Shown: positions 1,962 through 48,041 of the stretch, one piece after another
Position numbering within the stretch: the stretch's first letter is position 1
How the letters are laid out: each line of letters begins with the position of its first letter
DNA from: Trichoplax sp. H2
Lineage: Eukaryota
Length of the DNA: 48,041 nucleotides
Direction: 5' to 3'
Assembly (NCBI GenBank): GCA_003344405.1
Contig: NOWV01000168.1
Span: forward strand, 124,001-172,041
Made by a program: the position numbers and the translations under genes
Notes under the pieces: model-generated
Seen by the model: the letters and a program-made list of their open reading frames with translations, nothing else
The model's database searches: none
Told to the model about the DNA's origin: nothing

Positions 1962-2824
1962 AGGGCCATGCAGGTAAGAAAAACATGGTCAGGGTTTCAA
2001 GCTTCCACTTTTCGTCACAGAATAATGCACCATCATTGCAGGAGTTCAGTCATAGACTAGAATTGAGTTGAGTTGCTGTAGTCGTTTGATTGTAGTCTAT
2101 GAAAAATAGTTCTCGGAAAAGTTGGAGATCTCGACTGGACCAAACCAATCGACTCACTTGACTGTCTCGTATCATGGTTGGAGTCAATTTCTTACTACTT
2201 CATCGTACAGGATAGTCAGTCAGTCAGTCGAATTTAGGGTCGAGCATGCGCTCTTCGTTCGTCCTGTCCACCACAGTCTACAGTGCACAGTATCGCTGCA
2301 GTCCTGGTACGGTAGGCATGACCGATGAGAAACCCATTTGTTTACAACCTACCGTACGCCACCCTAGTTTTATTGTTTCACTATGGGCACGATGGCCCCA
2401 CGACCATCGTGCCCTGGTACCACTGACGGTAAACAATCTCTCTATGGATGAAGTGGGTGACCGCGCCAATCCTAGTTGAGTCGATGTCTTAACCCCCTCC
2501 AATGTTGCAACTACCACCGAAAGCGGTGTAAATGCCCCGACATAACCCTATCCGAGTCATTCGTTATTGGCGTCACTGACGTAGGGAACACGGTTGCAAG
2601 AGTGGAGAAGAGAAAAAGTTGCCGACGATTCCTTCTATCCTCATCATTGCAATGGTTATCCACTGCGTTCTTCTTGCTTAGTTGATAGCAGCATTTTTTG
2701 CATTAGCTTGATAGAGTCTAGTACAAGCTACGATCATGATCGCTGTAGTTTGATTCCTTTTACTCATGGTTACCGATGGCTTTTACCTTTGATTGCTTGC
2801 AGCATAAAAGGACAATCATCAATC

Positions 2825-15995
<13,171 letters not shown>

Positions 15996-25469: not shown

Positions 25470-25755
25470 TTTCAATTCCTTTTCCTGTAATTGCTGCTAG
25501 CAATAACGTGTCAAAGATCTCCTTTTCCTTTCCAACAGGCCAAGCTAGGATCGATTTGCTAACCTATTTCTTGACTGCAATTTTCTCACTCCGTCTTATC
25601 AATGTGGACTCCAGTCAATTTGTCATACTTCACTGACTCAGCGAAGTCCTTTTGACTGCTGTCCAAAGGGGGAGATGAAGTGCAGTAGAACTTGAAGTGC
25701 TTGCTACACACCCGATTGGGTGTGAGGTACTCGCTTCACGCGCTGCATCCGTTCT

Positions 25756-26815: not shown

Positions 26816-29800
26816 ATGTCCAGGCGTCGACCATGGCGACGTCTATGCCCCGATGTAGTCGATCAACGAATCAATCAAGCGATGCAAGCTACAATTTATA
26901 TCGTTCATCAAACTGGACCAACAGGTTTCGTTATTAAAGAGGATGCAAGTGATCGAAAATATAAGGTATAAATTGCCCTTCATTTCACTCAAGATCAAGT
27001 ATTGCACATTGTTAAATAACAATATCTTATTTATACAAATACAAAATTTCTCCAAACTAAAGTATACGTACACGTATAATATACTGTCTACTTTAATAGT
27101 ATATTTACAAGTCCAGAAAGTAGAAACACACACAATATCACAAGTGCAATAATCAATAACTATTCATAGAAGCAGTAAAAGTACAGTAGAATTGACGGCT
27201 ACGCAGATTGGTAATATGATATACTGTGAACTACCCAACAGTAAATTATGACAGTACAATACGCCAGCGAACTCAAATAATCTACTTTCCAAACAAGTAC
27301 TGGGTGTAAAGTATCACTGGCATAGGCTCGACTTGTAATAAGTGTTAATATTGTATATTAATAGCAATGATCATTACGAAGTACCAACCAAAGAATAGTT
27401 TAATAACGAGAGATATTGATCGCTTACTTATAGGTATCACTAGGGGAAGAACATTCATGCACTTGTAGGACATTTGAAAAAGAGAAAGAACTCTGTATCC
27501 ATATATTATGGTTTGTGCTACTGATGATAATGGTTCTTACTGACTGCATTTTTCCCTCTTCTTAATCGATCATTGTAAATGATACCCATAAAAATTATAT
27601 ACTTATACCTCCAGATAGATTGCTTATTAGATAAACTTGTTAGTCTACATCAACTTCGTTTGGATAGAAAAAAAACTCTTGCAGCACAGTGATCTATACG
27701 AAAGAAGATTTCACGCACTAATACCATAGAATATTATTAATATAAATTAGACTGCAAGATAAAAAGAAAAGTTGTATTAATATTATTACACAGTACATTA
27801 GTCATTGGTTAGTGTTAAGCGTCAGGTAAAATTCGTATACAGCAAGTACAGTGTAATATATTACAATTTTGAAATACTCAGTTATTTCATTACCTCAATC
27901 AGATGTATACTTATATACAAATAATATTACAGTCCGGAATTGATCACAAACCAGTAGGATATTGCATCATAACTTCTTATGCGATGCTAATGTCCTTTCC
28001 CTATATACACTATATTGTGTTTAATAATAAACAAAATAGATCTGCTTAAACCATATTATAGTAACATCCAATGAGCAATGTCTTACATGTATAGACGTTT
28101 TACAAGTCGAGTATTTAGCTTCTTTTAAGTGTTTTATTCTTTATATATTCACAGGTTGCTGATACGAAAATTTCGTATTCCTAAAGAAAATCCTAGTAAG
28201 TTACAAATCATTCACTACTTACGTATACTACTATTGACAATGGATGAATACCTATAGCCTTTCTATTTTAATAATAATAATTCATTATCTAGCGAGCATT
28301 CAGCGATTACTTATGTATGTATGCTGTTATAGTTGCATTTCAGTTGTCCTTGGTAGAAAGAGAAATTAATGAAATTTTAAGAGGAACTCATGTCTATACC
28401 AATACCAGTAGTAGTAATAAAGACAAAAAACTAGTAAATGATACCGATGATAAAAGAAAAACTATACAGCAACGTGAAATAACCAAAGAAGATGTCTGCC
28501 CAATTTGTCAAGAAGAGCTACTCGATACATCTGAACCTGTAACATATTGCAAGTATGGATGCTCTATTTATATTTATATAATAACTTTCAACGTAACCAC
28601 GGATACCTGTACTGCTCATTGATAAATTATTCTCATTTGGGTACATCTTGATAAATAGATACGGTTGTGGTAATAATACCCATATTAAATGTATTAAGAT
28701 ATGGGCAGAACATCAAAAAACAGTTGGCGAAGCAACAATCAAATGTCCACTTTGTAGAGAAGATTTTGGTTCTTTACAGGTACTTACTGGTGCTATTCAA
28801 TTTTTTCAGTTTCACATACAAACATAAATATAACTTGTATCATTTTATTGTTATTGTTTATTGTGTGCTTTAAAGACTCGTAAAGTACGGTCAGCTCAGT
28901 TACAAAAATAATAAATTTCATATTACAGTATATCAAAATTACATATAATTTAAAAATTGTTCACAGTATTCAAAAATTTGATATATGGTTGCTATACGTA
29001 CTGCAATGTCATATCAATATACTGTTAACTAACCTAATTGATATGCTGTCATCCCTTCTAGGCCATTAAGGAAGAAATGCGTCAATCATCGAAACTTAAA
29101 ACCAGAGCTCAAAGAGGAAATTTCCATCTAGGTGTTACATGCAATAATTGTCGTCAATGTCCAATTGCAGGAAACTGTTATAGGTAAATTTCTAATTGAT
29201 TATAATCTAGAAATTGCATTAAAAGTGGTTTTCAATACGTGACTGATAAGTCTATAAGAACTTAAATGATGCTAATTATCACACTTTAACTTATAGATGT
29301 GCAATCTGCTACGACTACAATCTATGTCATGCATGCTATGCGCAACAAATTCACAGTCAGCATTCCTTTAACTATAGAGAGGTAAATTAATTGATCACCG
29401 TTATAATACTGCTTGATGTTAATACTTACACAAATATAGTATTGTCATATCTAGTATGCTAAAAGGGGAGACCAGCTGATAAATAACTTGTTGCTAAATT
29501 TATGCTTATCCAGAAAAGTTCGCAACGCTGGAAACAAGCTCCACGAATAACTGGACAAACATTACCGGATGCAGTTATTGCTGACTTAGTTAACCGTGAA
29601 ATTGAGAATGAAGATTATGAATTATTGCTACAGTTAGATAGGTAACGATAATAAAATTGACAGCCTTAATTTATTAAAAAATAATCTTACATTAAATGAA
29701 ATGGATTACATAATTAATTAGTACCAACGACACATTCTGACATTATCAAATTTTTATAATTAACGACTTTCTTAACTTTGAATATCGTACAACCCCAAAA

Positions 29801-31274
29801 CTTTAGTGCTATCGATCAAAATCAAGTTGATACACTACCTGAAGAAGTTATCAGACGCTTTCCGATTGAAATTATAAATTCTGACAACTCACTCTTAAAT
29901 CAAGATATTAAATGTAGAATTTGTATGCTGCCATTTCAAATTCGTCAATACGTACGAAAACTTCCATGTAGACATAAGGTAAAATTTTACTCTTCTTGTT
30001 AATTGTTTCTGGCATACACATATTGCCATATTTAAGTATAATTCCCGTAGGTAATCAATATCTTCTTTTCATCAATACAGTTTCATGTTCAGTGTATAGA
30101 CCATTGGTTAATGCATGAAAGATCATCATGTCCTATAGATGGCGAAATTATAAACCCTGTCCTCGATGGAGCTACTAGTATTGGTAGATGTAACCGTAAC
30201 AATCGACGTAAAGTAGGACATCATCATAATCGTGGCCAAAGACATCATCGTCAAGGTCTGCTAGGCAACTATTAATGATTAATTATTATAATTGCATAGA
30301 TAACAGATGTATGACCATTTTAATAACTAGATCCAATAGAAGCTCCGTCTTTAGCAGTAACCGCCGTTCAAATTAATCAATCTGGGACGGATTCTAATCA
30401 ACTACAAAGGCACCGAGCTGAAAATTTATCTCATGAACATGCATTTCATCAGCGCAGCGTTGTTCATCGCCATCGAAATAGAGATCACAGTGTAAGGCCA
30501 GATACCGATTTAGATTTTACCTTAAGTGGAGCGGGTTTACAAATATCAGATACCGGGTAAGCAATTAGTGTCGATATGGTAGCTCATATGATTTAAAATT
30601 GAACGCTAACCGAAAGTTATATAAAATTGTACAGGCCACATCGTGATAATGATCTCATTCAAGTTAGACATGATAAAAAAATGTCTCGGCCGCCGTTATA
30701 TCCAAAACATAAGGAGAAATATGGCTCCTCTAAGCCTTTACAACGAGCCGGTAATATGGCCGTTGTAGCACAAGGGGTAGCAACATCGATTGAACATAAC
30801 CAAAACACCTTATCATCAAATAATAGTAGAAGTTTTAGTGCAGAAGATCGCCAAAAAAACAATCGCAAATCTTCATTAACAAGAAAGCTTAGAAAGGTAT
30901 CTCAGTTGTAAATATAGGGCTGTAAGCAGATTCTAAACTACACATTCTTTCGTTTCTTTACTATTTATAGACTGGTCAGTTTCATAATAATCTGCGTATT
31001 TTTATTCTTCTAGACAACATCATTAACATCGTTAACGGCACCTGCTTTACCTTCAGTACATGGAAATAGAGTAAGCCGCAGTGATGAAGGATCAAAGGCA
31101 ATAATAAATACTACTACTAGTGGTGAATTAACGCGATCTAATAATCGAGTTCATAAAGGCTTAGCCATTGCTACGGTTATGAAGGTCAATCAAACAAGTA
31201 TGACTGCTAGTAATAATGCTAATCAAGACAACGGTGCAGCAGGACAAAAGAGACTAATCTTACCTCCAATTTAA
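26816..31274 (+). CDS. ZSWIM2: E3 ubiquitin ligase ZSWIM2/MEX-like (SWIM, RING, ZZ, RING-H2), ~679 aa, 13 exons
   Basis: Exons 26816-26965, 27434-27510, 28155-28195, 28333-28552, 28659-28779, 29062-29183, 29297-29381, 29514-29641, 29807-29978, 30081-30255, 30331-30556, 30635-30896, 31014-31274 (2040 nt). Motifs: TGPTGFVIKED; SWIM HSCTCRTFEKEKELCIHILWLL; LSLVEREINEILRG; RING CPICQEEL..CKYGCGNNTHIKCIKIW..CPLCR; ZZ HLGVTCNNC..CAICYDYNLCHAC; RING-H2 CRICML..LPCRHKFHVQCIDHWL..CPID. The last three exons are less certain. Confidence 0.92.
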
Positions 31275-32949: not shown

Positions 32950-34918
32950 ATGGCTTACGGACCAAAGGCAGCCATCGATGACTACTTTGAATACACAAGG
33001 TGCGTTTAATGGTAACTAGGTCCATTTTAAACAAATTTAAACTAACCGTTTGTAATGAGAACATCTGTTAAAGTAGTTTAATTTCTAAATTTTAATGTTT
33101 TATGCCATAAAATAGCTATAACTATTAATAACAGCTAGTCTATTTTTTAACGATATCTAACTCTTTGATCTATCATCATCAATTCTAAATCCAAGTACAA
33201 ATCCTTTTAAAATTACATAATCATAAAATTTCAGTTTATCGTTTAAAAAGCTATATACAGTAGTTACTAGGATAAGTCAGCATGAAGCAATTACTTAGAG
33301 CGTTTGTATCCTTTCTAAGCCAATGGAAGCTCTAAGCAAGTCATTATAACAAGTATAAGAAACAAAGTAAAATTTACAATTTCGATATATTTTAGTCATT
33401 GCAAATTGTTAATGAACTGTCGTTATAAGAGAAAGGCATTAAGCGAAATAACAATATAGACTTAAGCTGTATATACGAATAGATGAACCGTTCCATTAGA
33501 AACGAGTTTCAGAAGTTAATACATTTATGTATCGTTTCTTGTGTCCATTCCACTTCCATAGAATTGTAGGTGATGACGATGGTGGCAAGTTGTTTACACC
33601 TCAGGAGTACGAGAAATATAAAAAAAGAGTTCTACCTATACGTGCTAAAAATCGGTTATACGTGAGTTGGACTTCCCCTACTGGCATCGATTGTAAATTG
33701 ATTGGTCCAGAAACACCATGTTTTTGTACACATAGGTCAGAACAACACTCATCGTTGCTAACATTGGTTGCAACCTATTACTTTTATCATCGTGTTATGC
33801 TGTATCCTTTCCTCCTTTAATTTAGACATAAGGATTGTCAATAAATATTACAGCAGATCCTGAATTAGTTTTGAACTGACGACTATCCAATCTATTCTAG
33901 ATATAAACAACATAAGACCGATTTTGAAGTTATTCCATCTGAACGACCAATTGCGATGCCATGCCGAGCAAAAGGATGTTTGTGTAAATCATATCATTAC
34001 ATTCCCGCAATGGGCTCACAGCACATAAAGTGTAGCGCTTGCAAGCATCCATCGAATGAACATTCACCTAAATCTCCGTACAAGTGTGCCAGGAGCAACT
34101 GTGGTAGCAAACAATGTCAAGGTAAATAATATCACGGAATAAGTTATGCCGGATGACCGAATTTAGAAATATACTTTAATTAATTAGTCTCCTCTTTATG
34201 ATGGCTTAAAGCAGATAAATGATGTTTATAAATATTATAATTAATCATTATATGCTGCAAAAAGAAAACGACAAGTAAGTTTACGTTAGTACACATCTTT
34301 GAAGATCAGATGCTCCTTTCAATACTACATTTCAGACCACTAACTATTGTCGGTATTAATATACTATTCCCATTTATAGCCTGATTTTCTGTAGGATATT
34401 AGCTTTACAGTATTTGGTACCTATCAATTTAGTACTAGTTACAATAAACGAATAACTTGTCGAGAATCAGCTCAGAGATAAATTTCAATTGTTGATTAAT
34501 TTAGGATTTAAAACTTCCTATACATGCTTGTGTGGTGAACTCGCTAATAAACATCAGACAATTATTGAAACCAAAGAGGAAAGAGAAAATCGTGGCCACC
34601 CTGTTAGTAAAGACGACGTTCCGTATATTGCTATGGGAGGTTTAACAGGTAATAGAACTAATATTAGATTAATTTCAGTGGCCAAAACAATTCTCTACTA
34701 TATATTACATCCTAATATTCCTAGGATTTAGCTCTTTAGCTGAAGGGTATATACGATGCGATCCAAGTGGTGCTGGTCAAATTTCAAAGGAGCAATTAAA
34801 TCAACCTATTACTTCAAGCGATCATCCTTTTCTTAGGACTTACGGCATCCCACCTATGAATAAAATAAAAGCTAAATCTGGCAAATCGTCAACTTGTAAA
34901 CTTGTCAAAAAACAGTAA
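32950..34918 (+). CDS. FAM221A: FAM221A-like Cys/His-rich protein, ~260 aa, 5 exons
   Basis: Exons 32950-32999, 33562-33735, 33901-34121, 34505-34648, 34725-34918 (783 nt). AAIDDYFEYTRIVGDDDGGKLFTPQEYEKYKKRVLP..DCKLIGPETPCFCTHRYKQHKTD..ETKEER..PYIAMGGLTGFSSLAEGY closely matches FAM221A as I recall it. Confidence 0.92.
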
Positions 34919-35872
34919 ATTCAAACCTCATAATTCGAACTAATTATAAATAACGAGGCAGATATTACTATATCGTTTTCCAATTCGTAAAGATCGAATG
35001 CATACTAAATTCTTCTACAGTCATCACAATTATATTCATTAGTTTATTAATGCAAAACAGAAGAATAAGTTTATTTTGGATTAAACATATAACAATTCTA
35101 TTCCTATCTGCTAGGCTAGATTTATATGTTTTTTTTACATTGTACGCAATCTTTATTAAATAATAATAACATTAATGGAATTTCCGTATTCCTTTTCTAG
35201 GAAAATTTAATGTAGAAAGTTTTAAAACCGTAATTACTAATAAGTACTGGTGCAATTACGTCTATTATAGCTGATAGACAATAAATGTTGTGGAAGGTTA
35301 ATAATAATAACGCAATGATACAGCAATCATGACATTTACCCACTAGATATTTGCTATACGTAAACCGTTTCATTCTCATTTTTACAAAGCTATTTCTCTT
35401 CTGTACAGCGTACAATTTTAGTAAAATCTTTACGTTGTTTAGTAGGACAGATATCAAAGACACAAAGATATACTGTGTCGCTGTCAGGTAAACGATCGGC
35501 TCCTCAAATCAGAGTACAGAAGAACTTACTAATCCATCTTATAAATTAGTCAGCGATTTGTAAGCAGATAAAACACCATTTACAAATTTTAAGCTACCAT
35601 TCTGGGTTTCAAAACCTTTTTCTCTTACCAGGATGCTGAACATATTAAGATATACGACATTTAGCAATGAATTTTCCATGCTTTCTTTTGAAAAGCGTAA
35701 CTATGGAAGACTACTTTTACTAACCTCTAACGAAGTCTAATGATGTAATACCAGCTTAACTATAATACAAGGAAGTCCAATTAAAAATGATAGGCTGAAG
35801 ATGTCGGTGGTAGCTTTACTGTTAAATTAAAATCTAAATGTACTTGCCGATACAAAATTGTTAATTTTCTGA

Positions 35873-36415
35873 TTAGGTTATTACGCATTGTTGATCTTCT
35901 AACGACTGAGCCGTTTTCATATAAGCGATAGTCTGAATTAATTGAACAAATGCAAGTTCAGTTTTAGAGTACGTTGTTGCCGATGTTTCAATATATCGAT
36001 GTTGAAATGAACTCGCCAATAATTCACCTTCTTGAAAGGTAATTTGCCGTTTGTAGCTTATTGCATCATTCTTATTACCAACAATAATACAAGGAAAATC
36101 GCTTCCAGTCACTTGGCTTAAACTTTGATAGTAATTACCAATATCGTCAAATGATTGCCAGTCGTCAACGGAAAATACTAACATTACACCATCAATATCC
36201 TGTAAAATTGATTGGTAGCTAGATAGTGCTGAGTTTGCTGCTAATTTACTAACAATTATCTTTAATTTGATCGAGTACTGACCAAATTTTAGTATCTTTT
36301 TAAATTGACTGGATCTATATGAGCTTCTGTCAGGTGGATAACGTTTTTTACAATACTGACATGCTATTGCAGTCTTACCGACATTTGAATGACCAAACAA
36401 GACAATCTTAACTGG
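35873..36415 (-). other. Ras-family small GTPase-like domain with degenerate G2/G3 and C-terminal CVIT
   Basis: VKIVLFGHSNVGKT (G1, 36394-36371), DGVMLVFSVDDWQSF, PCIIVGNKND (G4, 36079-36065), YIETSAT (G5, 35989-35975), AFVQLI, CVIT* (35887-35873). Confidence 0.9.
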
Positions 36416-39400
36416 ATTTTTAGGTATGCTCGTTTTATGCGAGCTTTTTGATAACGATCTGATCCGATGATTTAAATGTTTTAATTTTATACGAAAAGAT
36501 TCACTTTCACCGCTCGTATTGTCTCCGTCCGGATCACTGTCAGATAGAAGGTTAAAATTAGATTCTAAGTAAACAGATGAACGCTCATCACAGCTATCTG
36601 TATCTTCATAGTGAGAAAGATGTATATGGGCCTCATCTTGAACGTTTTTAGCATATGCTGAATCTACAGAACTGGTAGCGTGTGTATTTGCGTTAAGGTA
36701 TTCGGATTCCTTACAAATTGAAGCAATTTTCTCTTGTTCCTCTATATCATAACGAGAAGAGTGTGCATTCGGATCCTCTCTATCTGAGAGAGTAAATTCT
36801 GATCCTACGTAAGTTGGAGTTATTTCATTATGGCTCACAACATTCTTGCGAGACGAAAGCTCTTCTGAATCGTCATGGAGAGCAATACCGGTTGACTCTT
36901 GGTTCAGTGGAATGCTTCTATATAGGCAATCTCGATCAATGTTATCTTCTTGCAAAGGAGTATATTCACGTCCAGTGTCCTCTTCACATACTGAGCTAGC
37001 TGTCGATTCTAGACTATTTGATAGATTTACGTGCAGGACAGTTTCAACCAGGGGAATATTATCATTACAGTTAGATGAATGGTGGTTACAATCCATTTCA
37101 TTGAGTAATGCCGGAAAAGTAGATTGAGACTGATTTCCTGATTGATAATTCGCGACTGACGGATCCGACAAGGATAAATTCAATATTCCAGGACTCTTTT
37201 GATCTTCAATCGATAAACTTTCCATGCTATAAAACGTGATTTGGCTTTCATCTGATTGATGGTCGATTTTATTTATAGACTGATGAAGTTCATCCAAAGC
37301 TACATTGTTTGCACTATAATACAACCGTTTAGCATAAATTTCAGATTTGTCGAAACCTTCAATTTGATTTTGGTACTTTATTGAAATGTTATCCATGCTA
37401 TAAAACGTAAGTTTTTCAAGATGCAAGGAACCATTATTATCATCATGGTTATATCTGATTTCCGTTTCTGAAAAACGGCGTCTCGGCCGAAGTTTATGGG
37501 TGTCACGCGCTTCCATACTTGCAAAACTGGTGTTTGAATAGGACTTTAAATTATCAGCAATCACTTCCTGAATTTCTTCGGACACAATGCTTCCAACTGA
37601 ACTACAATCCAATTGATAGGATTCATCCTTATTACTGAAGCTATCACGAATCTCGTGTAGACTTTCATTGTAGCAGGCATTAGCTGTTAATTCAATTGTA
37701 TAGCTCTCACAAATTTCATCTTCAATTTTATTGTCAGTTAGTTTAGATGTTAACTCCGGAATACCACCAGCGTTGCCATCCTTTCCAAATTTTGCTCCAT
37801 CCAAATTAGACGTAAACCTTTCACTCTTATCGTCACACGCATTTTGTCTTATCAAACTTTCTGAGGAATCTACTAAGCTATAATCAGGTTCTTGACAAGT
37901 TTTTTCAACTTCCATTTCGACTATGCTAGCCTTTAGCTGACGTTTGATATCTTTCCGAATATCTTCTACAGATTCATGTTTAGTTGAATTATAAAGTAAC
38001 GTACTAATATCGTTCCCAACAATTTTCTCTCCACTGACTTCTCCAAAAACCTCAGTATTTTCGTAATTATCATCTTCCTTACAGGTTTGATTGCCAATAA
38101 CAGCTTCGGCTGTGCTCAAGTGAAACTTACAGTTATCGTCACCGTCATTGCTTTCCTTGATCTTTGCTCTGGACGAGGAAGTTGACAATATGCTATGGCC
38201 GTCATAATCATTATTTCCAACTAATTCAATTTCTTGATTACAATTATCTTCCTCGCTAATCTCCTCTGTAAACTTACCAAGATTTATTATAATATCTTTC
38301 GGTGTCAAGCTATCACTTTCATCTCGTATTTTCTCACCAACTTTCTCTGGGTTTGAATTTGTCAAGCGTGTGAATCTGTCATTCTTATAAATGTCCGTAA
38401 CTGTCTCATTATCTGTCAAGTTTACAGATGGTTTGATGTGATCTAAACAAGCATATCCTAATGCACCCTTATCATTATGAATTTGTAAATCTTGTTCTAG
38501 CCTTAATTTATTGCATTTATTCTCGTAACAAATACCTACAAACTTAGAATTCTCCTTCTCTATTCTAGAAAGAATAGTTCGAACAGCATCTACTTGGTCT
38601 ATTCTTAATTGCTTTAACTTTTCCTGATAAGTATTTCGTAAGAATTCCGTTCCTTTTCTAGCTTTGGAATTGAAGCTTTGTAAAATACTCTCTTGTTCTA
38701 TCCCTAAAGTCTCTAGCTTCTTGCTACAATTATCACCGGCAGCTTCCTTTTCTTTTTCAAGTATTGCGTATAATTTCTGGATTATATTTTCCTGTTCTAA
38801 CCTTAATTGACTCAACTCACCTTCATAGAAATGCACAGAAAATTTCCATACTTTTCTAGGTTGATAACTTATATTATTGTTCTTATATTCTTGTTCGATT
38901 CCCAACCGATTTAGGTTTCCACTGCAGTCACTGCCATCGTTTTCTTCTGGAAAGGTAAAATGCAATTTTTCGATGTCATATCTGCATTCTTGGCGAAGCC
39001 GGCTCAATTTATCTCCAGTCCGACTTATCAAAGCCTTCCACTCCTTGCTCGAATTTGATAACAGCGTTTGCAAGATGTGATCTTGCTCAATACATAACTG
39101 ATTTAATCTTTCATCATAATAACTAAGGAAATTCTCTTTCTCCTTTTTAAGCTCATAAAATAAATTCTTAACAATCTCTATTTCTTCTTTTTCAACTACA
39201 TGTAGTATCTCTTGATACTGAGATATAATCGTTTCTTTCTCCGATTCGAATTGCTTATACAAGTTATCGTTGCTACGCTCGTATTCCAGTGTCTGCTGAT
39301 TTAATACCTCTGCTTGTTGATTAGCCAATGCTTTCTCCCTAGCAATCAATGAGTGAATGCTTTCAATGGTCTCTATATCTCTTTGATGCTGGCTTTGTAG

Positions 39401-42400
39401 ACTTTTTATTTCTTTCATGTACTTACAATCCATCTTTTCCATTTCGTTTTGATGCTGGTATTGGGTATTTTTCAACTCCACTTGATAATCATTTGCATTC
39501 TTTGTCATTAAACTTTCAATTTCTTGACATTGACGATTTAAATCGTGTACGGTGTTATCATAACTCTCTCGTAAATAAGTAATCTGATGCTGAAATTCAT
39601 CATGAATGCTTCGTATTTCTTGTTGATAACAATCCTTAATGGTTTGAATTTCATGTTTATTTTTTGACTGAATTTCCCCAATTGCTATTAGGTGTCGGTC
39701 ACGGATATCTTGTAATTCCGATTGATGCTCATGCATAAGAGTATTTACGGCATTTGTTGCCTTCAGATATTTATCTTCTAATTCACAAAGCTGGCGCTGA
39801 TAAGTTTCAGTTGTATGGGCTATTGTGCTTTGATGTTCATTTATGATATTTATTTCATTCTGGTATTCCATTCTGATATTTTGTAGTTCTATTCCATGCT
39901 CATTTCGGATCTGTAGGATCTCTTCTTCGTGTAAATTCTGGATATTTATTAACTTCCTATCACATTTTACAACTTCTTGCTCCTTTTCATTGTTAACCTT
40001 ATTACAATTAATAACGGCATCTCGTTCCTTTATATTATAACTTTCACTTGATACTTCCTGTTGATACTGATGATTAGAGCTGATTATTTGCAACTCATCT
40101 CCATGCCCATCTTCGGTATTTCGCATTGTACATTCATAATTTTCATGATGCTTACTTTGAATGCATTGCAATTCTAACTGGTGTTCATTTTGAATATCCT
40201 CTATCTTTTGTAGATGACTTGCTTTCATCCGAGCTAAGCTACTACGAAATTCTTGTTTCTCCAGCTCAGATTCATTCGCAATATTTGCTATCTGATAGCT
40301 ATATTTATCTTTTAAAACTTGCACCTCTTTACAATGTTTGCCCTGAATTTTTTGTAGTTCTTCTTGATGTGTATCATCAACACCTATCAGTTCCATCTGA
40401 TCGTCATTTCGTACATCTTGCAATTCTTCGGTATGAATAACAGCACAACCAGACCTATTATAATTATCATTATATTCTCCGATTAACTCTTGAATTTTTA
40501 ATTCATAATTTTCAATCATATCGGATGCTTGACGTTGAGATTCATCTCGAATCTGTTGAACCTCTGCCTTTTGTTCTCTTATTATTGATTCAATTTGTAA
40601 ATTATGTTCACGAGATAAGATGTCTATCTTCTGTACTGCCTCATCTCGAACGCGTTTTACATCCTTTTGATGGGCTTCCTCTATAACTGTTAATTTTCTT
40701 CGATAGTCCTCATCTTTTAATCGAAATTTATTTTGAAGGGATAATACTTCTTTGTCATGAGCTTCCTGTAATTGGCACAATCTTTCATCGAATATTCTCG
40801 CCTGATTGTCAATTTGTAGCTGGTGATTTTCTCTGGTTGTCGCCAATTTACCCTCATAATCTTTTTTTAAATAGTCTGATCGGTCGTCGTATGCCTTCTT
40901 CTGCTCCTCCAGCTGTAATTGATAACCATTGAAATTCATAATTTCTCTTCCCCGAGCTTCCTGTAATTTAATCGAATAACTGCTCAAAGTTGCTTCTGAC
41001 TCCTCCAATTGCTTCTGGTATTTACTTTCAACTGCAATTAGCTCTCGAGCATGATCAATATGTATTTGACCGATATTGTCTTCAAAGGCTGTTTTCTGTT
41101 CTTGTAATTGAGTTTTGTGGTTACTTTGACATACGGCCATTTCTTTATCATAAGCTTGATGAGAATGATCTAATTTAATTTTAAATGCCTTCTCTTGCGT
41201 ATCGAATTTTATCTGATATACAGAATGCAAATTTGCTATTTCCTCATTTTGAGTAAGTTGCAACTGATTTAGCTTAGCATTCATTTTATCCTCTAGCTCA
41301 TCCATTTTTAATTGGTAAAAACGTTGTGTTTCTACAATTTTTTCGTCTTTAGCTCGAAGTGTTTGACTTAAACCGTCTTCATATAATTTTTTTCGTTCTT
41401 TCAACTGCTGTTGATGATCATCGCGAATATTTTCAATTTCTCTTTCGTGGGATATTCGCAAATTATTTAAAATATTATGCAATTCCTTCTCCTGTTCCTG
41501 TAATTGCACCTTATGAAATCCTTTCAATATCTCCATTTCCTTTATTTGAGTTATTTTCAACTTATTTATTTCTTCTTCATAAACATTTTCTTGCATTTTC
41601 ATTTGCATACGATAAACGTCTCGAACTGTTGTTATGTCTAAAGAATGATTTCGACTTTGATCATTAATTCTTTCTATCAACGCTTCTCGTTGCCATTTTA
41701 GCATCTTTCGGTGGGTCTTAATTGTTTTAGCTAATTCTTCATCATGACTCCGGTGTTTTTTCTTTAATTTATTTTCATACGTAAACTGCAGTTGCACCAA
41801 TTGTAACTGTTGACTATTTTTAGCCGTAGCCATTTCTGCGCTATGTTCTTTCAGTAATCTATCTCGTTTAGTTTGGAAGTTCTTCTCCTGTTCCAGTATC
41901 CACTCTTGATAACTACGTTTAGCTGTTACCATATCTTCCGCGTGAACATAATCTATATGCTTTAATTTCTCTTCAAAAAATTTTTGTTTTTTCTCTAATT
42001 CTTTTTCATGTCTATCTTTAACAGAAACTATTTTCTTATCATAGTCAGCCTGTAATCGTTTAGATTTTTCATCGGAAACTTTCTTTTCATCGTCTAACAG
42101 GATTTGATAATCGTCTCGCAGTGCCGTAATTTTTTTGGTATAAACTTCATTAAAGTCTTTAATTTTATCTTCATACATTTTCTCTTGATTATTCAATTGC
42201 AGTTGGTAACTATCAGTAATCATCAACAATTGTTCGTCATAATCTTTCTTGCATTGATTTAAATCATCCTGGACTGCTTTCTTCCATTCTTCTTGAGCTA
42301 AAATCATGTCATTATCAAAATTTCGTTTTAGGTGCTTCAATGCATCCTCTGTTACTTTATCTTGGTTCTTTAGTTTTACTTCGTAATTTTTTTCGGCTAT

Positions 42401-45400
42401 AACCATTTTCTCCTCGTGCTCCTGTAATGATTGATTCAAACTATAAATTAATTTTTCTTTCTTCTCCAATTCTTTATGATTTTCCTCTTTAAGTGCTGCT
42501 ATTTCTTTCTTATGAACTTGAACAAAGTAATCCGATTTATCTTTAAACACTTCATCCTTCGTTTTAATCTGTACTTCATAATCATTTCTAGCCGTCAATA
42601 TTTCTTTATCATGACTTTGACGCAGTAGGGTTATAGTATCTTCATTCATCAGCTTTTGCTGCTGCAGTTGCATCTGATAATTATGTGAAAGTGACGCAAC
42701 TTCTTCGTCATGAGCTAATTTTAATTGCCCTAAGTTATCTTCAAACATCCTTTCTTCTTTTCTTAACTGTAAATGATACCTGTCCTTTATTTTTACTACC
42801 TCTAAATCATGAATTCGGCGCAAATCTAGTAAGTTTTCTTGATGCTCTGTTATCAGCTTTTCTTTTTCATTCTGATACTGTTGTGCTAATTGTGTATTAT
42901 GATTTTCCATTTGCAATTGTAGAACTGTCATTTGTTTCTTCAAACGTTGTTCAAATTGTGATTCGAGATCTATGATATTATTCTCGTGATGCTGTATCAT
43001 CTCTTGTTTGTCTGCCTGAAACTTGCTTTCTTGTTTTTTAATTTGTTCATTACATTTCGCTTTCAAGACCTCTAATTCTACAGCATGGTTATCTTTTAAA
43101 TGACTTAAATTGATTCGCAGTGCTTCTTGCTGACGTTGCACCTCATTCATATAATCAAGACGATTCTGGGTAACTTTATTTTCAATGACAATCAATTCAT
43201 TCTTGACTTTTTGAGCAAGGTCATCTATTTGGCGTTTTAATTCTTCTATCTTCAACCTTTGTTGATGGATTGTATTGGATAATGTTTGTTCATGCTGACA
43301 TTTTAGTTGATAGTCACTTTTGATCATATCTCTTTCCATAGCTAAGACATCTTTTTCATGTTGATGTTTTTCCTTTAGCTCATTCCATTCCTGTTGCTGT
43401 TTCATTCTTTCATCATTAATATTATTTTCCAGTAATCTGATAGTTTCATTATGCTTATGTTGTAATCGCAGTAATTCATTATCATGCTGTCTCTGGCTCG
43501 CTGCTAAGTTTTCGTTATATTCCTCTATTGCCTTTTGTATCTCAATTTTTTGATCTTTCTTGACAGTATCAAAATGAATGTGCAATTCCTGGACGATTAA
43601 CTCTTGCTTCAGTTGTAATTGATGGATCATACTTTTATGTTGATTACGACAGTCTATTAACTTATTTTCACTTTCACTTTTTAAATTTTCGAGCTCTTCT
43701 TTATGTTGCTCATTTAAATTATTTAATTGTTTGCAATGTGTTAATTTATTATTTTCAAGCTGCTCCTCAAAGCTTTTAACCGTCATATCGTGTTGAGCTT
43801 GCAATTGATGGATAAAATCTTCCTGCTGTTTCTTGTAGGTGTCTATTAAATTTTCTTTTTTATTATCTAATTCGTTAATTTCAATGCTATGCTTTTCTTT
43901 AAGATTTTTTAATTGTAATTGATGTGCTATCTGACACCTTTCCAGATCATCTTCTAACTGTTTGATCGAGTTGTTATGATGTGTTTGTAACTGTTGGATG
44001 ACATTATCGTATTTCTTTCTGCAAGATTCTAATGCTTTTTCTTGATCATCTAGTTTTACTTTATATTCGTCCTTAACTTCATTTAAGCGTTCAAGGTACA
44101 TCAATTTACTGACTTCAATATGATTTTTCATTTCTTCGATAGTGTTATCATGTTCCTGCCGCAGCTGATTGCTAACTTTATCAAGTTGTTCCTTATTTGT
44201 ATCGAGCAACCGTTTCTTTTCATGAATTAAGTTATCAATCTCTCTTTTATGCTCATTCTCGATGATACTAATTTGCTTCTGGTGTATTGCTTGATCAGTA
44301 TCAAGCCGATTAATCAACTTTTTAATATCTACGTCATGTTGTACTTTTAGTTCGTTGATAGCATCTAAATATTGCATCTTAATAGTGTCAATCTGTTGCT
44401 CTTTTTCAATAGTTATGCCATCGATCTTTGCTTTCTGTTCTTTCTTTAAGCTATTTAATCGTTCTTGATTAACAAATCTTTCAGTCTCAAGTTTATCAAC
44501 AAGTTGCCTAATGGCTAGATCATGCTGAGATTGCATTTGTTGGATATTGCAAGCATGTTGCTGCTTACAATATTGTAATTGCTTTTCATTCTCCAAAATT
44601 ACATCATTTAGTTCAGCTTTGTATTTCTTTTCCGTATCTTCTCTTAAATTTTGTATAGTTTTAACTTTCTTTACTATTTCATCATACTGCAATTGCTTTT
44701 TATAGATAATTTTCGTTGACTCCTCTCTACAAGCTTTTACTGCTTGTTCTTTTTCCATAGACAAGTTATCAATCTCACTTTTATGGTCATCCATAATCTG
44801 AGCAAATTTCTTTTGATGTATGACCTGATTCGCTTCCAATTCACGCATGGCATCCTCATGCTTTTTTCTGTGGATATCAACTAGCTTTTTCTTTTCATTA
44901 ATCAAGGTATTCAGTTTACTTTTATAATCGGCTTCTAGCTGATTGAATACACTTTGTTGAGCTAATTTTTCATTTTCAAAATTTTCTTGCAATATTTTCT
45001 TATCTAAATCATTCTCAGATTGCAATTGCGCCAGCTTGTCTTTATGCTGCTGTTCTAAAGCTACTATTGCTAATGCTTTATTCTGACGCAATTCTGATAT
45101 TTTTATCTCAGATTCTTTCTTCAAGCCATGGAGTTGATTTTGTAAAGTAGATATAATATCATCACGTTTCTGGATTTCTAGCTTATGCTGACATTGAAGC
45201 TGATAAATGCTATTATCGTGCTCCTTTTTGGATGTTTCTAGTACAAGTTTCTTTTCCACCAATAACTTATCAAGTCGACGTTTATTCTCATCTTTTAAGC
45301 TTTTAAGTTCATGTTGATGCTTAACCATTTTATCTTCAGTTTTATTTTTAAGACTGTTTATAACTTCATTGTGCTCTAGACGTAATTTGTTCATTCCAGT

Positions 45401-48041
45401 CTCATGCTCATCATGTAAGGTGGCCATTATTTGTGTCTTTTCTGTATGATATTTTTCCTCCATCTTTTTCATTTGACATTGTAATGTTGATAGATCATTC
45501 TCGAGTTTCTCTACTGCCATATGATGCTGAATTTCGATTTGAGCAAAGTCATCATTATACTGTTTCTTTAACCCTTCTAAAAGGGTATCTTTCTCATTGA
45601 TCAAATTATCAATTTGAATTTTACGTTCACTTTCGATATCATCAAATTTTCGTTGGTAATCTAACTCCTTCTTCTTAAATTCATCTTGAAGTAATTTTAG
45701 TGTAATGTTATGTTCTTTTTGTAATTTGTCTGTTTTATTAACGTATAGTTTATCTAATGTGATTACTTTTTGTTCACTTTCTTCATGTAATTGTTTTAGC
45801 CTCATTTGGTACTCCTCCTCTACGCTTTTGAGCTGATTTTCGAGATTCTTGATTTCTACATCATGTTGTAATTGTAGTTGATGTATATTAACTTCATAGT
45901 ATTTTTGAGAGTCTTTCAATTGCACTTCTTTTTTTTTAGCTAGACAATCTAGCTGTATTTCATGCTCACTTTTCATAGTGTCGATTTTACGCTGATATAA
46001 TAGATCGGCATTTTCTAATTTCTCCCTGAGCTCATTTATAACTATAGTATTTTGACTTTGTAACTTATCAATTGTGTTCTTATAGTCCTTTTCTAAATTT
46101 GTTACCATCCGAATATTTTCATTATAGGTATTTTTAATTTCTATTTCATGCGCAACCTTAATGTTGCCAAGTTGATCTTGTAATGCCGTCATGATCCGTT
46201 CATTTTCATCAAGTGATTGTTTTTTTTCCATTATATGTGATTCTTTCAAACTATTAAGTTGATTTTGTAACATGGTTAGCATCTCTTTTTTTTCATCATT
46301 TGCCAGCTTTATTTCTGTTCGATGTAATTCTTTTAAGCTATCAATTTCATCTTGCAATATTGTTGATATTTGCTCTTTTTCAGCAAACGTTTGTTTCTTC
46401 TCTACTTCATAAGAATCTTTCAAATTATCAAATTGATTCTGCAAGGTTATCGATATCTGTTCATTTTCTTCCTGTAACCGTTTTACTTCCCTTGCATGCA
46501 ATCCCTTCAAATTATTAATTTCATCTTGCTTTGCGGTTAACATTTGCTTCGTGTCATCACGTGTTTGTTTCACCTCTAGTTCACATTCTTCTTTTAGCTT
46601 CTCAAGTTGATCTTGTAAAGCTGATACTTTGCACTGTTTCTCGATATATAACTCCTTCAGTTTTATTTCATGTACTTGTTTCATGTCATTTATCCGACTC
46701 TGAAGTCTTGACAAATTTTCTTTCATTACAACAATATCACTTTGATGCTGACTATTTAATCTCTTGACCTCCTCAATGAAATTCAAACGATTACATTCAA
46801 CTTTATCCATCCATTCCTTCAGAATTTGGTCATGTCCTACTTCTTGATCATGAATTTTATGATTATAATCATCTCGACAAGCTAACAATTTATTTTCTTT
46901 TTCTTTAATCAATTGTTCAATATTTGCGTTATGCTTTGCTTTTATATCTAATAATTCTTGCTGATATTGTAATCGGCATATTTGCAATTGATCTTGAAGG
47001 TTTAAATTATGTCTTTCCTCTAGATCATCAAACTTTACTTGCCACTGTAATTTTAAACTATTAATATCTTCTTCAAGCTGATTTTGCACGCTAGTTAATT
47101 TCGTTTGGCAATCTTTAACTAATTTGCTTCTTATATCTTCTTTTTCTTTCTGCCATGACCATTGCATCTTACTTATTTCTTCTTTATTTTGATTTTGTAA
47201 ATTTGTAATTCTAATCTTGCAATCTATTAACATCTGTCTGACCACATTTTCCTTCTCTTCAAGCAATGTTGATTTTAAGTTGTTTATATTGTCGTTGTAT
47301 TTATTTTGCAAGTTATTAATTTTAGCTTCATGCTCTTCTCTTATTTCTATCTGGATCGATTCTTTCTCTTTCTGCCATGATGCTTTCATCTCGTTTAGCT
47401 CTAATTCATGACGGTTTTGAGTATCGCAGAGTTTAACTTGATATTCATTATGTAAATTTTCTTTTAATAATTCTTTCTCTTCTTCACATAGTCTATTTAT
47501 CCTCTTAATTTCGTCTTCATGATGGTTTCTTGTGTTTACTAATTTGATATTGCAATCTTCTTGTATATCTCGCTCTATTACTTTCTTCTCTTCAAGTAAT
47601 GTTGATTTTAAGTTGTTTATATTGTCGTTGTATTTATTTTGTAAGTTATTAATTTTAGCTTCATGCTCTTCTCTTATTTCTATCTGGATCGATTCTTTCT
47701 CTTTCTGCCATGATGCTTTCATCTCGTTTAGCTCTAATTCATGACGGTTTTGAGTATCGCAGAGTTTAACTTGATATTCATTATGTAAGTTTTCTTTTAA
47801 TAATTCTTTCTCTTCTTCACATAGTCTATTTATCCTCTTAATTTCGTCTTCATGATGGTTTCTTGTGTTTACTAATTTGATTTTGTAATCTTGTATATCT
47901 CGCTCTATTACTTTCTTCTCTTCAAGTAATGTTGATTTTAAGTTGTTTATATTGTCGTTGTATTTATTTTGCAAGTTATTAATTTTAGCTTCATGCTCTT
48001 CTCTTACTTCTATCTGGATCGATTCTTTCTCTTTCTGCCAT
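35873..48041 (-). CDS. Giant (>4050 aa, 5' end outside window) repetitive coiled-coil protein with C-terminal Ras-like domain and CaaX box
   Basis: Stop-free frame from the window edge to TAA at 35873-35875. The ORF-track start at 47974 is a TTG, and the frame reads WQKEKESIQIEVREEHEAKINN upstream of it. E/K/Q/L/H-rich helical rod ~48041-38490, acidic S/D/E linker ~38490-36500, Ras-like domain 36415-35876. Confidence 0.9.
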   Translation of the reverse strand, partial: WQKEKESIQIEVREEHEAKINNLQNKYNDNINNLKSTLLEEKKVIERDIQDYKIKLVNTRNHHEDEIKRINRLCEEEKELLKENLHNEYQVKLCDTQNRHELELNEMKASWQKEKESIQIEIREEHEAKINNLQNKYNDNINNLKSTLLEEKKVIERDIQEDCNIKLVNTRNHHEDEIKRINRLCEEEKELLKENLHNEYQVKLCDTQNRHELELNEMKASWQKEKESIQIEIREEHEAKINNLQNKYNDNINNLKSTLLEEKENVVRQMLIDCKIRITNLQNQNKEEISKMQWSWQKEKEDIRSKLVKDCQTKLTSVQNQLEEDINSLKLQWQVKFDDLEERHNLNLQDQLQICRLQYQQELLDIKAKHNANIEQLIKEKENKLLACRDDYNHKIHDQEVGHDQILKEWMDKVECNRLNFIEEVKRLNSQHQSDIVVMKENLSRLQSRINDMKQVHEIKLKELYIEKQCKVSALQDQLEKLKEECELEVKQTRDDTKQMLTAKQDEINNLKGLHAREVKRLQEENEQISITLQNQFDNLKDSYEVEKKQTFAEKEQISTILQDEIDSLKELHRTEIKLANDEKKEMLTMLQNQLNSLKESHIMEKKQSLDENERIMTALQDQLGNIKVAHEIEIKNTYNENIRMVTNLEKDYKNTIDKLQSQNTIVINELREKLENADLLYQRKIDTMKSEHEIQLDCLAKKKEVQLKDSQKYYEVNIHQLQLQHDVEIKNLENQLKSVEEEYQMRLKQLHEESEQKVITLDKLYVNKTDKLQKEHNITLKLLQDEFKKKELDYQRKFDDIESERKIQIDNLINEKDTLLEGLKKQYNDDFAQIEIQHHMAVEKLENDLSTLQCQMKKMEEKYHTEKTQIMATLHDEHETGMNKLRLEHNEVINSLKNKTEDKMVKHQHELKSLKDENKRRLDKLLVEKKLVLETSKKEHDNSIYQLQCQHKLEIQKRDDIISTLQNQLHGLKKESEIKISELRQNKALAIVALEQQHKDKLAQLQSENDLDKKILQENFENEKLAQQSVFNQLEADYKSKLNTLINEKKKLVDIHRKKHEDAMRELEANQVIHQKKFAQIMDDHKSEIDNLSMEKEQAVKACREESTKIIYKKQLQYDEIVKKVKTIQNLREDTEKKYKAELNDVILENEKQLQYCKQQHACNIQQMQSQHDLAIRQLVDKLETERFVNQERLNSLKKEQKAKIDGITIEKEQQIDTIKMQYLDAINELKVQHDVDIKKLINRLDTDQAIHQKQISIIENEHKREIDNLIHEKKRLLDTNKEQLDKVSNQLRQEHDNTIEEMKNHIEVSKLMYLERLNEVKDEYKVKLDDQEKALESCRKKYDNVIQQLQTHHNNSIKQLEDDLERCQIAHQLQLKNLKEKHSIEINELDNKKENLIDTYKKQQEDFIHQLQAQHDMTVKSFEEQLENNKLTHCKQLNNLNEQHKEELENLKSESENKLIDCRNQHKSMIHQLQLKQELIVQELHIHFDTVKKDQKIEIQKAIEEYNENLAASQRQHDNELLRLQHKHNETIRLLENNINDERMKQQQEWNELKEKHQHEKDVLAMERDMIKSDYQLKCQHEQTLSNTIHQQRLKIEELKRQIDDLAQKVKNELIVIENKVTQNRLDYMNEVQRQQEALRINLSHLKDNHAVELEVLKAKCNEQIKKQESKFQADKQEMIQHHENNIIDLESQFEQRLKKQMTVLQLQMENHNTQLAQQYQNEKEKLITEHQENLLDLRRIHDLEVVKIKDRYHLQLRKEERMFEDNLGQLKLAHDEEVASLSHNYQMQLQQQKLMNEDTITLLRQSHDKEILTARNDYEVQIKTKDEVFKDKSDYFVQVHKKEIAALKEENHKELEKKEKLIYSLNQSLQEHEEKMVIAEKNYEVKLKNQDKVTEDALKHLKRNFDNDMILAQEEWKKAVQDDLNQCKKDYDEQLLMITDSYQLQLNNQEKMYEDKIKDFNEVYTKKITALRDDYQILLDDEKKVSDEKSKRLQADYDKKIVSVKDRHEKELEKKQKFFEEKLKHIDYVHAEDMVTAKRSYQEWILEQEKNFQTKRDRLLKEHSAEMATAKNSQQLQLVQLQFTYENKLKKKHRSHDEELAKTIKTHRKMLKWQREALIERINDQSRNHSLDITTVRDVYRMQMKMQENVYEEEINKLKITQIKEMEILKGFHKVQLQEQEKELHNILNNLRISHEREIENIRDDHQQQLKERKKLYEDGLSQTLRAKDEKIVETQRFYQLKMDELEDKMNAKLNQLQLTQNEEIANLHSVYQIKFDTQEKAFKIKLDHSHQAYDKEMAVCQSNHKTQLQEQKTAFEDNIGQIHIDHARELIAVESKYQKQLEESEATLSSYSIKLQEARGREIMNFNGYQLQLEEQKKAYDDRSDYLKKDYEGKLATTRENHQLQIDNQARIFDERLCQLQEAHDKEVLSLQNKFRLKDEDYRRKLTVIEEAHQKDVKRVRDEAVQKIDILSREHNLQIESIIREQKAEVQQIRDESQRQASDMIENYELKIQELIGEYNDNYNRSGCAVIHTEELQDVRNDDQMELIGVDDTHQEELQKIQGKHCKEVQVLKDKYSYQIANIANESELEKQEFRSSLARMKASHLQKIEDIQNEHQLELQCIQSKHHENYECTMRNTEDGHGDELQIISSNHQYQQEVSSESYNIKERDAVINCNKVNNEKEQEVVKCDRKLINIQNLHEEEILQIRNEHGIELQNIRMEYQNEINIINEHQSTIAHTTETYQRQLCELEDKYLKATNAVNTLMHEHQSELQDIRDRHLIAIGEIQSKNKHEIQTIKDCYQQEIRSIHDEFQHQITYLRESYDNTVHDLNRQCQEIESLMTKNANDYQVELKNTQYQHQNEMEKMDCKYMKEIKSLQSQHQRDIETIESIHSLIAREKALANQQAEVLNQQTLEYERSNDNLYKQFESEKETIISQYQEILHVVEKEEIEIVKNLFYELKKEKENFLSYYDERLNQLCIEQDHILQTLLSNSSKEWKALISRTGDKLSRLRQECRYDIEKLHFTFPEENDGSDCSGNLNRLGIEQEYKNNNISYQPRKVWKFSVHFYEGELSQLRLEQENIIQKLYAILEKEKEAAGDNCSKKLETLGIEQESILQSFNSKARKGTEFLRNTYQEKLKQLRIDQVDAVRTILSRIEKENSKFVGICYENKCNKLRLEQDLQIHNDKGALGYACLDHIKPSVNLTDNETVTDIYKNDRFTRLTNSNPEKVGEKIRDESDSLTPKDIIINLGKFTEEISEEDNCNQEIELVGNNDYDGHSILSTSSSRAKIKESNDGDDNCKFHLSTAEAVIGNQTCKEDDNYENTEVFGEVSGEKIVGNDISTLLYNSTKHESVEDIRKDIKRQLKASIVEMEVEKTCQEPDYSLVDSSESLIRQNACDDKSERFTSNLDGAKFGKDGNAGGIPELTSKLTDNKIEDEICESYTIELTANACYNESLHEIRDSFSNKDESYQLDCSSVGSIVSEEIQEVIADNLKSYSNTSFASMEARDTHKLRPRRRFSETEIRYNHDDNNGSLHLEKLTFYSMDNISIKYQNQIEGFDKSEIYAKRLYYSANNVALDELHQSINKIDHQSDESQITFYSMESLSIEDQKSPGILNLSLSDPSVANYQSGNQSQSTFPALLNEMDCNHHSSNCNDNIPLVETVLHVNLSNSLESTASSVCEEDTGREYTPLQEDNIDRDCLYRSIPLNQESTGIALHDDSEELSSRKNVVSHNEITPTYVGSEFTLSDREDPNAHSSRYDIEEQEKIASICKESEYLNANTHATSSVDSAYAKNVQDEAHIHLSHYEDTDSCDERSSVYLESNFNLLSDSDPDGDNTSGESESFRIKLKHLNHRIRSLSKSSHKTSIPKNPVKIVLFGHSNVGKTAIACQYCKKRYPPDRSSYRSSQFKKILKFGQYSIKLKIIVSKLAANSALSSYQSILQDIDGVMLVFSVDDWQSFDDIGNYYQSLSQVTGSDFPCIIVGNKNDAISYKRQITFQEGELLASSFQHRYIETSATTYSKTELAFVQLIQTIAYMKTAQSLEDQQCVIT
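47252..48041 (-). repeat. Near-identical in-frame tandem repeat of 330/333 nt (110/111 aa), >=2.4 copies, running off the window
   Basis: tctgccat anchors at 47371, 47704 and 48034 (spacings 333 and 330). The protein unit LQNKYNDNINNLKSTLLEEK...EEHEAKINN is repeated. Confidence 0.95.

Follow-up and report, generated by a model that had tools for sequence, protein, structure and literature searches.

What does an animal genome encode in a reading frame that stays open for more than 12 kb, and could a giant fibrous protein carry a Ras-derived anchor of its own? These questions are raised by a locus of Trichoplax sp. H2 (assembly GCA_003344405.1, contig NOWV01000168.1), of which we analysed a stretch of 48,041 nucleotides (positions 124,001 to 172,041 of the forward strand), hereafter the window, numbered from its first letter. 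An initial annotation had read the end of this window as one frame of more than 4050 amino acids that joins a long coiled-coil rod, an acidic linker of about 660 residues and a complete Ras-fold domain ending in a CaaX box. The frame is present, and its coordinates and sizes proved right within a few per cent. We read it as a real protein-coding gene, intronless over at least 12.2 kb, whose fibrous product has 4055 residues or more. With a probability of roughly 0.45, we propose that this product works as a scaffold or tether, and that a farnesylated Ras-like domain unable to switch holds it at its C-terminus together with a basic helix.

Results

A single frame open over 12.2 kb

35873-48040, minus strand: single open reading frame (ORF), 4055 codons plus a TAA stop, 5'-open at the window end

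Of the 4056 codons of this frame only the last, TAA (35873-35875), is a stop. Read in each of the other five frames, the stretch holds 183-561 stops, with longest open runs of 37-118 codons. Given the 0.070 stops per codon that characterise the remainder of the window, a run of 4055 codons without a stop would arise by chance with a probability of about 1e-127; no part of the giant frame, the 640-codon linker included, is open by chance. Since the frame is open to the window end, the N-terminus of the protein lies outside the window. A Pfam scan of the 4055 residues returned Ras as the only family above cut-off, and no transmembrane segment was found in them, the maximum Kyte-Doolittle value of a 19-mer being 0.96.

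The integrity of the frame was assessed with public sequencing runs. Twenty runs, bearing two organism labels and coming from seven studies, match the stretch (17 contain half of its words or more), and X5, X15, X19 and X20 were compared with the window. X5 is DNA-like: its depth is even in 30 of 30 bins, and the introns of the adjoining FAM221 gene are left unspliced in its contig. Six X5 contigs covering 35443-47200 differ from the window by 45 substitutions and no indel, so that the giant ORF shows 0 indels in 11.3 kb, whereas the 1.9-kb X5 contig over FAM221, introns included, carries 19 substitutions and 6 indels. A single X5 contig of 4211 nt (35443-39653) contains the stop, the Ras domain, the linker and 1.2 kb of the rod. 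Because it spans the stop to the rod, it excludes an assembly join in the linker, a possibility that the initial annotation had raised, with the proviso that X5 may not be fully independent of the window's assembly. Thirteen substitutions within the ORF are listed, 4 synonymous and 9 non-synonymous, for a neutral expectation of 18-35% synonymous; this count covers the listed differences, beyond which 83 more exist.

A proline-free rod of about 3000 residues

38951-48040, minus strand: proline-free amphipathic alpha-helical rod, residues 1-3030 (composition, hydrophobic period 3.64)
47252-48041, minus strand: young tandem repeat of 333 nt (111 residues), 2.4 copies, 97% matches, truncated by the window edge
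45941-46639, minus strand: run of 29-residue repeats, about residues 468-700 (lags 29, 58 and 87, rows in register)
40643-42820, minus strand: 22 in-register 33-residue repeats, residues 1741-2466 (lags 33, 66 and 99)
38426-39097, minus strand: rod end piece with six copies of L-[RGC]-[IL]-[ED]-Q, residues 2982-3205 (motif positions)

Residues 1-3030 contain no proline (the first is residue 3031) and about 23 glycines. Their composition is dominated by E, Q, K, L, N, I and D, and E, Q, K and L together account for 42-48% of each 1000-residue block. The hydrophobicity spectrum, averaged over segments of 154 residues, peaks at 3.64 residues, and this period is seen along residues 1-3100. The power reached 5.8 at a period of 3.67 and 0.86 at 3.50, compared to 1.0 ± 0.2 for shuffled sequence. 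Seven periods were tried for each segment: among segments starting up to residue 3081 the best one was 3.6, 3.667 or 3.75, or 2.2 in six of them, and never 3.5. The periodicity of the rod is of hendecad type, with a period near 11/3 and hydrophobic residues at positions a, d and h. A heptad coiled coil was ruled out, as the power at 3.5 lies below the value of about 1.0 given by the shuffles. The very long helical part of the initial annotation is thus retained, while its coiled coil in the heptad sense is replaced by a hendecad-type helix of period 3.64.

The same spacing is visible in the repeats. In the 33-residue units the hydrophobic columns fall at 0/33, 3, 11, 18, 22 and 25, which is the a-d-h spacing of hendecads, and the core is made mostly of L, I, M and F, with Ala in 11 of 176 core cells (6%). 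Repeat lags along the rod are 111 residues at the window end, then 29, 62, 33 and 11. The units have low mutual identity, yet they remain in frame and keep their amphipathic register. As read from its sequence, the rod is built from old, diverged repeats of 29, 33 and 62 residues and one young repeat of 111 residues. In the end piece, the L-[RGC]-[IL]-[ED]-Q copies start at residues 2982, 3046, 3079, 3112, 3145 and 3179, the last four being 33-34 residues apart, and Pro and Gly are present between them.

AlphaFold2 (AF2), run on the single sequence of residues 1701-2100, gave two helices of about 190 residues each with one break (predicted local distance difference test, pLDDT, 76.6; predicted template modelling score, pTM, 0.26). 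A protein-atlas match of a 750-residue rod piece was uninformative, with a recognition of 835, below the 2300 mark, and generic 'hypothetical protein' clusters. An undistorted helix has 3.63 residues per turn, so that a hendecad, at 3.67, has almost zero supercoil; bulky hendecad cores favour higher oligomers and the dimeric bacterial proteins Scy and FilP use Ala (PMC9858780; this and the other papers are cited from the parts of their text that were available). The initial annotation gave about 470 nm for the fully extended rod; a length of this order, about 455 nm for 3030 residues at 0.15 nm, would apply only if the rod forms one unbroken helix bundle.

An acidic linker and a basic helix

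36506-38425, minus strand: acidic Ser-rich linker, residues 3206-3845 (640 residues), net charge -72 (composition)
37394-37408 and 37223-37237, minus strand: T-F-Y-S-M copies, residues 3545-3549 and 3602-3606
36416-36505, minus strand: basic amphipathic helix, residues 3846-3875, directly before the G domain

The linker, predicted at about 660 residues, measures 640 and is as acidic as had been announced. Serine makes up 14% of residues 3251-3850. Its spectrum shows no helical periodicity and no Pfam family is found in it above cut-off; the linker is presumably disordered. It contains two copies of a motif of about 15 residues, T-F-Y-S-M followed by acidic and Ser residues, which lie 57 residues apart; an acidic tract precedes the second copy, and the linker is otherwise of unique sequence. 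We take these motifs to resemble the FFAT-like motifs that bind VAP. In the basic helix that follows the linker, the best 18-mer has a hydrophobic moment of 0.51 and a net charge of +5, and the AF2 model of the G domain shows a helix at positions 3-18 before this domain, with low confidence.

A Ras-like domain with a replaced G3 motif

35930-36412, minus strand: Ras-family G domain, residues 3877-4037 (Pfam, PDB, AF2, Foldseek)
36371-36394, minus strand: G1/P-loop GHSNVGKT, intact (G37, G42 and K43 in invariant columns)
36236-36253, minus strand: G3/switch II position, DxxGQ replaced (alignment columns)
36065-36076, minus strand: G4 NKND, intact (N143 invariant; K144 and D146 in columns conserved at at least 90%)
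35975-35989, minus strand: G5 ETSAT, with the SA of SAK kept and T at the K position (E172, S174 and A175 in columns conserved at at least 90%)
35876-35887, minus strand: C-terminal CVIT (Cys-aliphatic-aliphatic-X), directly before the stop (sequence)

The G domain matches Pfam PF00071 over profile positions 1-160 of 162, with 93.4 bits (cut-off 21.6) and an E-value of 1.4e-26. Its AF2 model, computed with an alignment of 60 hits, has a pLDDT of 87.5 and a pTM of 0.84, and Foldseek superimposed it on R-Ras, HRAS and KRAS in the PDB with template modelling (TM) scores of 0.84-0.91 (HRAS 7jii_A: TM 0.90, root-mean-square deviation 1.9; R-Ras: E 3.1e-15). The fold is therefore complete, as the initial annotation had stated. 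Its classification as Ras- and not Rab-type is less firm. In a phmmer search of the PDB, RhebL1, M-Ras, R-Ras2 and R-Ras lead at 60-62 bits (about 1e-15) and the best Rab-type chains follow just below, at 59.2 and 56.2 bits; the Ras branch comes first as claimed, by a margin so small that the assignment is weak. Protein-atlas matches of the domain fall in Ras-family clusters at 0.95-0.96, including ones named RASL10B and RASL11B, which we regard as a lead only.

A complete fold does not imply a complete set of motifs, whose states were read from an alignment of 61 GTPase sequences. At G3, the columns that hold D and G in at least 90% of these sequences are occupied by V84 and L87 and the Q position by A; in Ras numbering, D57/G60/Q61 align to V/L/A. 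The column of the switch I threonine (Ras T35) holds a Tyr, with Ser 1 and 2 residues earlier, the alignment of this loop being unsure at 22-32% identity. Nucleotide binding is probably preserved, given the intact G1, G4 and G5 motifs. With G3 lost and no evident switch I Thr, both phosphate sensors of the switch appear to be missing, and the domain probably does not function as a Ras switch. We read it as a pseudo-GTPase that binds nucleotide without switching. The predicted CaaX end is present as CVIT followed by the stop, and we infer that it is lipidated.

RNA over the giant ORF

33500-34731, plus strand: FAM221 gene in the Pfam survey, three exons (E 2.5e-34, 5e-25 and 1e-19); 33560-35786 with RNA contigs included
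36422-36496, plus strand: antisense RNA intron of 75 nt, GT..AG (joint 36421>36497, X15 only)
38761-38914, plus strand: antisense RNA intron, GT..AG (joint 38760>38915, X15 only)
40115-40212, plus strand: antisense RNA intron, GT..AG (joint 40114>40213, X15 only)

X15, X19 and X20 are RNA runs: they contain spliced FAM221 RNA, with three, one and three GT..AG joints respectively, and also contigs over the giant ORF. FAM221, whose introns of 165, 383 and 76 nt are confirmed by RNA contigs, and the giant ORF are convergent. A distance of 87 nt separates the end of the FAM221 RNA contig (35786) from the ORF stop, so that the 3' ends of the two genes probably overlap. Within the ORF, an unbroken X20 contig of 1695 nt (36341-38035), whose strand is not readable, crosses the linker/Ras boundary. 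The three X15 introns are canonical, with a good donor context on the plus strand, and therefore establish that a spliced antisense RNA exists; the length of the 75-nt intron is also in frame for the sense strand. These data indicate that antisense RNA extends across 4.3 kb or more in the 3' part of the giant ORF, perhaps as read-through from FAM221. No sense-strand intron or start was seen in the RNA contigs over the ORF, and a single sense mRNA for rod and Ras domain is still hypothetical.

Search for relatives

Word-based protein searches with residues 3800-4055 (among proteins of near length) and with residues 1-4055 (among near and shorter ones) gave nothing below thresholds. When the last 942 residues, i.e. 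linker and G domain, were compared by HMMER with 1.84 billion representatives, 6424 hits were obtained at E ≤1e-3 and 133 at ≤1e-10; none was found at ≤1e-30 (best 4e-30) and there was no self-hit. The seven best matches are proteins with tandem multi-Ras/Rab-like domains and no long rod. A scan of metagenome contigs for related loci yielded 238 pattern matches, 0 of which were confirmed. Titles and abstracts in the literature mention no multi-thousand-residue rod fused to a Ras-type domain, which does not prove that such a protein is unpublished, and the fungal 'Big Ras GTPases' are, in the available part of their description, only 3-4 times the size of a small GTPase (PMC8146680). The architecture, reported as unrecognised by the initial annotation, thus has neither an orthologue nor a description among the sources searched, in protein libraries without this protein itself. 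As these libraries lack even this protein, blanks in them are uninformative on conservation; giant single-exon genes can be absent from protein libraries.

Neighbouring genes and other features of the window

2585-3028 (HECW_N) and 14758-15275 (HECT), plus strand: HECW-type HECT ligase (Pfam)
18713-18988, minus strand: PIP5K exon (Pfam E 2.7e-08)
28293-30002 (about 28.3-30.0 kb), plus strand: two RING-type exons (Pfam)

The window is a gene-dense, AT-rich animal locus, as judged from the HECW_N, HECT, PIP5K, RING and FAM221 domains of the neighbouring genes and from their GT..AG introns. Between HECW_N and HECT, long open Ser/Asn-rich exons (8646-12892) resemble a very large disordered insert. 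A possible further PIP5K exon lies at 25251-25496 on the minus strand, where no Pfam match was obtained. At 1321-1900, ORF translations of both strands show an internally repeated peptide pattern, which suggests a tandem or interspersed DNA repeat. Rfam gave 0 matches over the whole window.

Discussion

A proposed C-terminally held scaffold or tether

In the reading that we favour, the G domain would bind guanine nucleotide and would be unable to work as a GTP/GDP switch. Farnesylation of CVIT, together with the preceding basic amphipathic helix, would make it a constitutive membrane anchor. The rod would project from this anchor by way of the flexible acidic linker; its 11/3 period would leave it with almost no supercoil, and it would probably form a nearly straight fibre in a bundle of several chains. 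The protein would serve as a long scaffold or tether, as tail-anchored golgins do, and its N-terminus, outside the window, would hold the capturing or binding end. A more ambitious version of this reading makes it the founder of a new class of self-anchoring tethers, in which a nearly straight hendecad rod of about 3000 residues carries its own lipidated, Ras-derived domain as a nucleotide-locked, permanent anchor; we consider this version unlikely.

Several observations count against the proposal of a C-terminally held scaffold. The short tail that precedes CVIT is acidic, with neither a second Cys nor another membrane signal; that a CaaX box with X = Thr is farnesylated is an assumption, and this box does not figure in the source consulted on the matter. 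No homologue with this architecture emerged from any search, in libraries that gave no self-match for this protein. The listed substitutions in the ORF, a tiny sample (n=13), show no purifying selection on residues. The strand-informative RNA joints inside the ORF are three, and all are antisense to it. Finally, contigs of X15, X19 and X20 diverge from the window sequence at two points, one in the G5 motif (35975), 34 codons short of the stop, and the other at 41586. No canonical splice site exists at either point on either strand, and the window gave 0 matches to each of three divergent contig-end sequences when up to 3 mismatches were allowed. The sequence departing at 41586 is open in the frame of the ORF and resembles a neighbouring repeat. 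Elsewhere in the genome, a paralogue, a variant haplotype or a different 3' end may account for these departures.

The nature of the anchor and the unity of the product can both be read differently. A serious if doubtful alternative keeps the whole protein and changes the role of its end: by analogy, the farnesyl group and the pseudo-GTPase would form a protein docking module, and the rod would be a fibre of cytoskeletal, centrosomal, ciliary or kinetochore type. The farnesyl group of Spindly, CENP-E and CENP-F is needed for their targeting to kinetochore or corona, so that long helical proteins with a CaaX end and no membrane anchoring are already known (PMC4384735, PMC4436830, PMC10630089), and pseudo-GTPase domains have been described as interaction modules (PMC12490416, PMC5593906). 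The acidic character of the tail before CVIT, with no polybasic or palmitoyl signal, would also suit docking. However, no kinesin, Spindly-box or other such Pfam family occurs in the 4055 residues, the basic amphipathic helix beside the G domain suits a membrane surface, and the docking partner is not known. It is distinctly less probable still that rod and Ras domain are separate products, made from an internal start or an alternative isoform, or parted by cleavage in the linker that frees the G domain. Large Rab GTPases do occur as short and long isoforms, with and without parts (PMC8303950), and a trypanosome FYVE-GTPase is reportedly cleaved with release of its GTPase domain (PMC3593210); the RNA contigs here are patchy, with no readable strand, and the long linker is presumably accessible to proteases. 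Against such a separation, the 640 codons of the linker are open in frame despite 7% stops per codon, beyond what chance allows, which means that the linker is translated together with at least one neighbour. One RNA contig is moreover unbroken across the linker/Ras boundary, and the RNA contigs reveal no splice or start on the sense strand.

The rod itself might not be a coiled coil of any kind. We regard as quite improbable that it is a giant surface-active 11-mer amphipathic helix of the apolipoprotein, perilipin, synuclein or group 3 LEA (late embryogenesis abundant) type; such a helix would have no fold in solution and would form a coat on lipid droplets or membranes, or take up its fold when dried. 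Helices of the 11-mer amphipathic type share the rod's period of 3.64-3.67, LEA proteins have 11-mer repeats (PMC6975979), and the 11 Ala in 176 core cells are few for a dimeric hendecad coiled coil (PMC9858780). The core columns, however, are mostly L/I/M/F, as in bundles. Repeats of the apolipoprotein type are punctuated by proline, whereas the 3030 residues of the rod contain none, and we know of no surface-active 11-mer protein that comes near its size. Hardly credible, at last, is the view that the frame is an artefact of assembly or a relic that is dead or was never expressed. The absence of RNA proof on the sense strand, the neutral-looking substitution pattern at the 13 listed sites and the absence of homologues from libraries that lack this protein itself would all fit it, but it leaves unexplained how 4055 codons stay open where 7% of codons are stops, why X5 has no indel over 11.3 kb and 6 in the adjoining 1.9 kb, and why diverged repeats are still in frame with their amphipathic register kept; a contig of another run also spans the joins.

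The C-terminally held scaffold or tether would have several implications if it is expressed as one protein. In length its rod would far exceed every other hendecad-type helical rod in the sources compared (PMC9858780, available part), a Ras-fold domain would have been re-used as a fixed lipid anchor and not as a switch, and the protein would be a natural case in which to study how the reach of a tether depends on rod length and on a flexible linker. If it is self-anchoring, one protein would join functions that known tethers split between a golgin and a separate small GTPase. The locus would be much less interesting if its RNA were only antisense, or if the frame were lineage-restricted and fast-evolving.

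Comparison with known systems

A close parallel in domain order is given by the large Rab GTPases (Rab44, Rab45/RASEF, Rab46/CRACR2A-L and C. elegans rsef-1), which likewise join in one polypeptide a helical or coiled-coil region and, C-terminal to it, a prenylatable small-GTPase domain (PMC8303950). With 311-924 residues in the available part of that source, they are much shorter than the giant protein of at least 4055 residues, as the initial annotation had pointed out. They carry an N-terminal EF-hand, whereas Pfam finds none in the 4055 residues here, the N-terminus being outside the window; their G domain is a Rab, whereas the best PDB matches of the present one belong, by a small margin, to the Ras branch. 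Unlike them, the giant protein has lost G3, ends in a single-Cys CaaX box and has a rod of hendecad and not heptad type.

The topology proposed for the giant protein is that of tail-anchored golgins. Golgins are anchored by a transmembrane helix or by a GRIP or GRAB domain that binds a separate Arl or Arf GTPase. In contrast to giantin and other tail-anchored golgins, the giant protein has no transmembrane segment and no GRIP/GRAB Pfam domain, and its anchor would be its own lipidated G domain. A long helical protein with a CaaX end is also found in Spindly, CENP-E, CENP-F and lamins, whose targeting is governed by farnesylation according to the available parts of the sources. These proteins are heptad coiled coils; they have no G domain before the CaaX box, and the giant protein has no family match to them. 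As in the pseudo-GTPases p190RhoGAP, AAGAB and the degenerate septins, in the part of the literature available, the G fold is kept and catalytic or switch motifs are lost in what would be a structural or interaction module. In the present case, by contrast, G1, G4 and G5 are intact, and the domain is C-terminal with a CaaX end.

As for the rod, an extended 11/3 periodicity with nearly no supercoil is shared with Scy and FilP; the rod of Scy, of more than 1000 residues and almost wholly made of hendecads, is the longest of its group in the available part of the source (PMC9858780). These proteins are bacterial and have an Ala-rich dimer core, whereas the present rod is about 3 times longer, with a bulky L/I/M/F core and 6% Ala, and the likeness implies no homology. 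The arrangement is related to large coiled-coil GTPases, C-terminally anchored rods, farnesylated coiled coils and pseudo-GTPases, and it is unusual for its size, for the hendecad period of its rod and for a Ras anchor that is degenerate.

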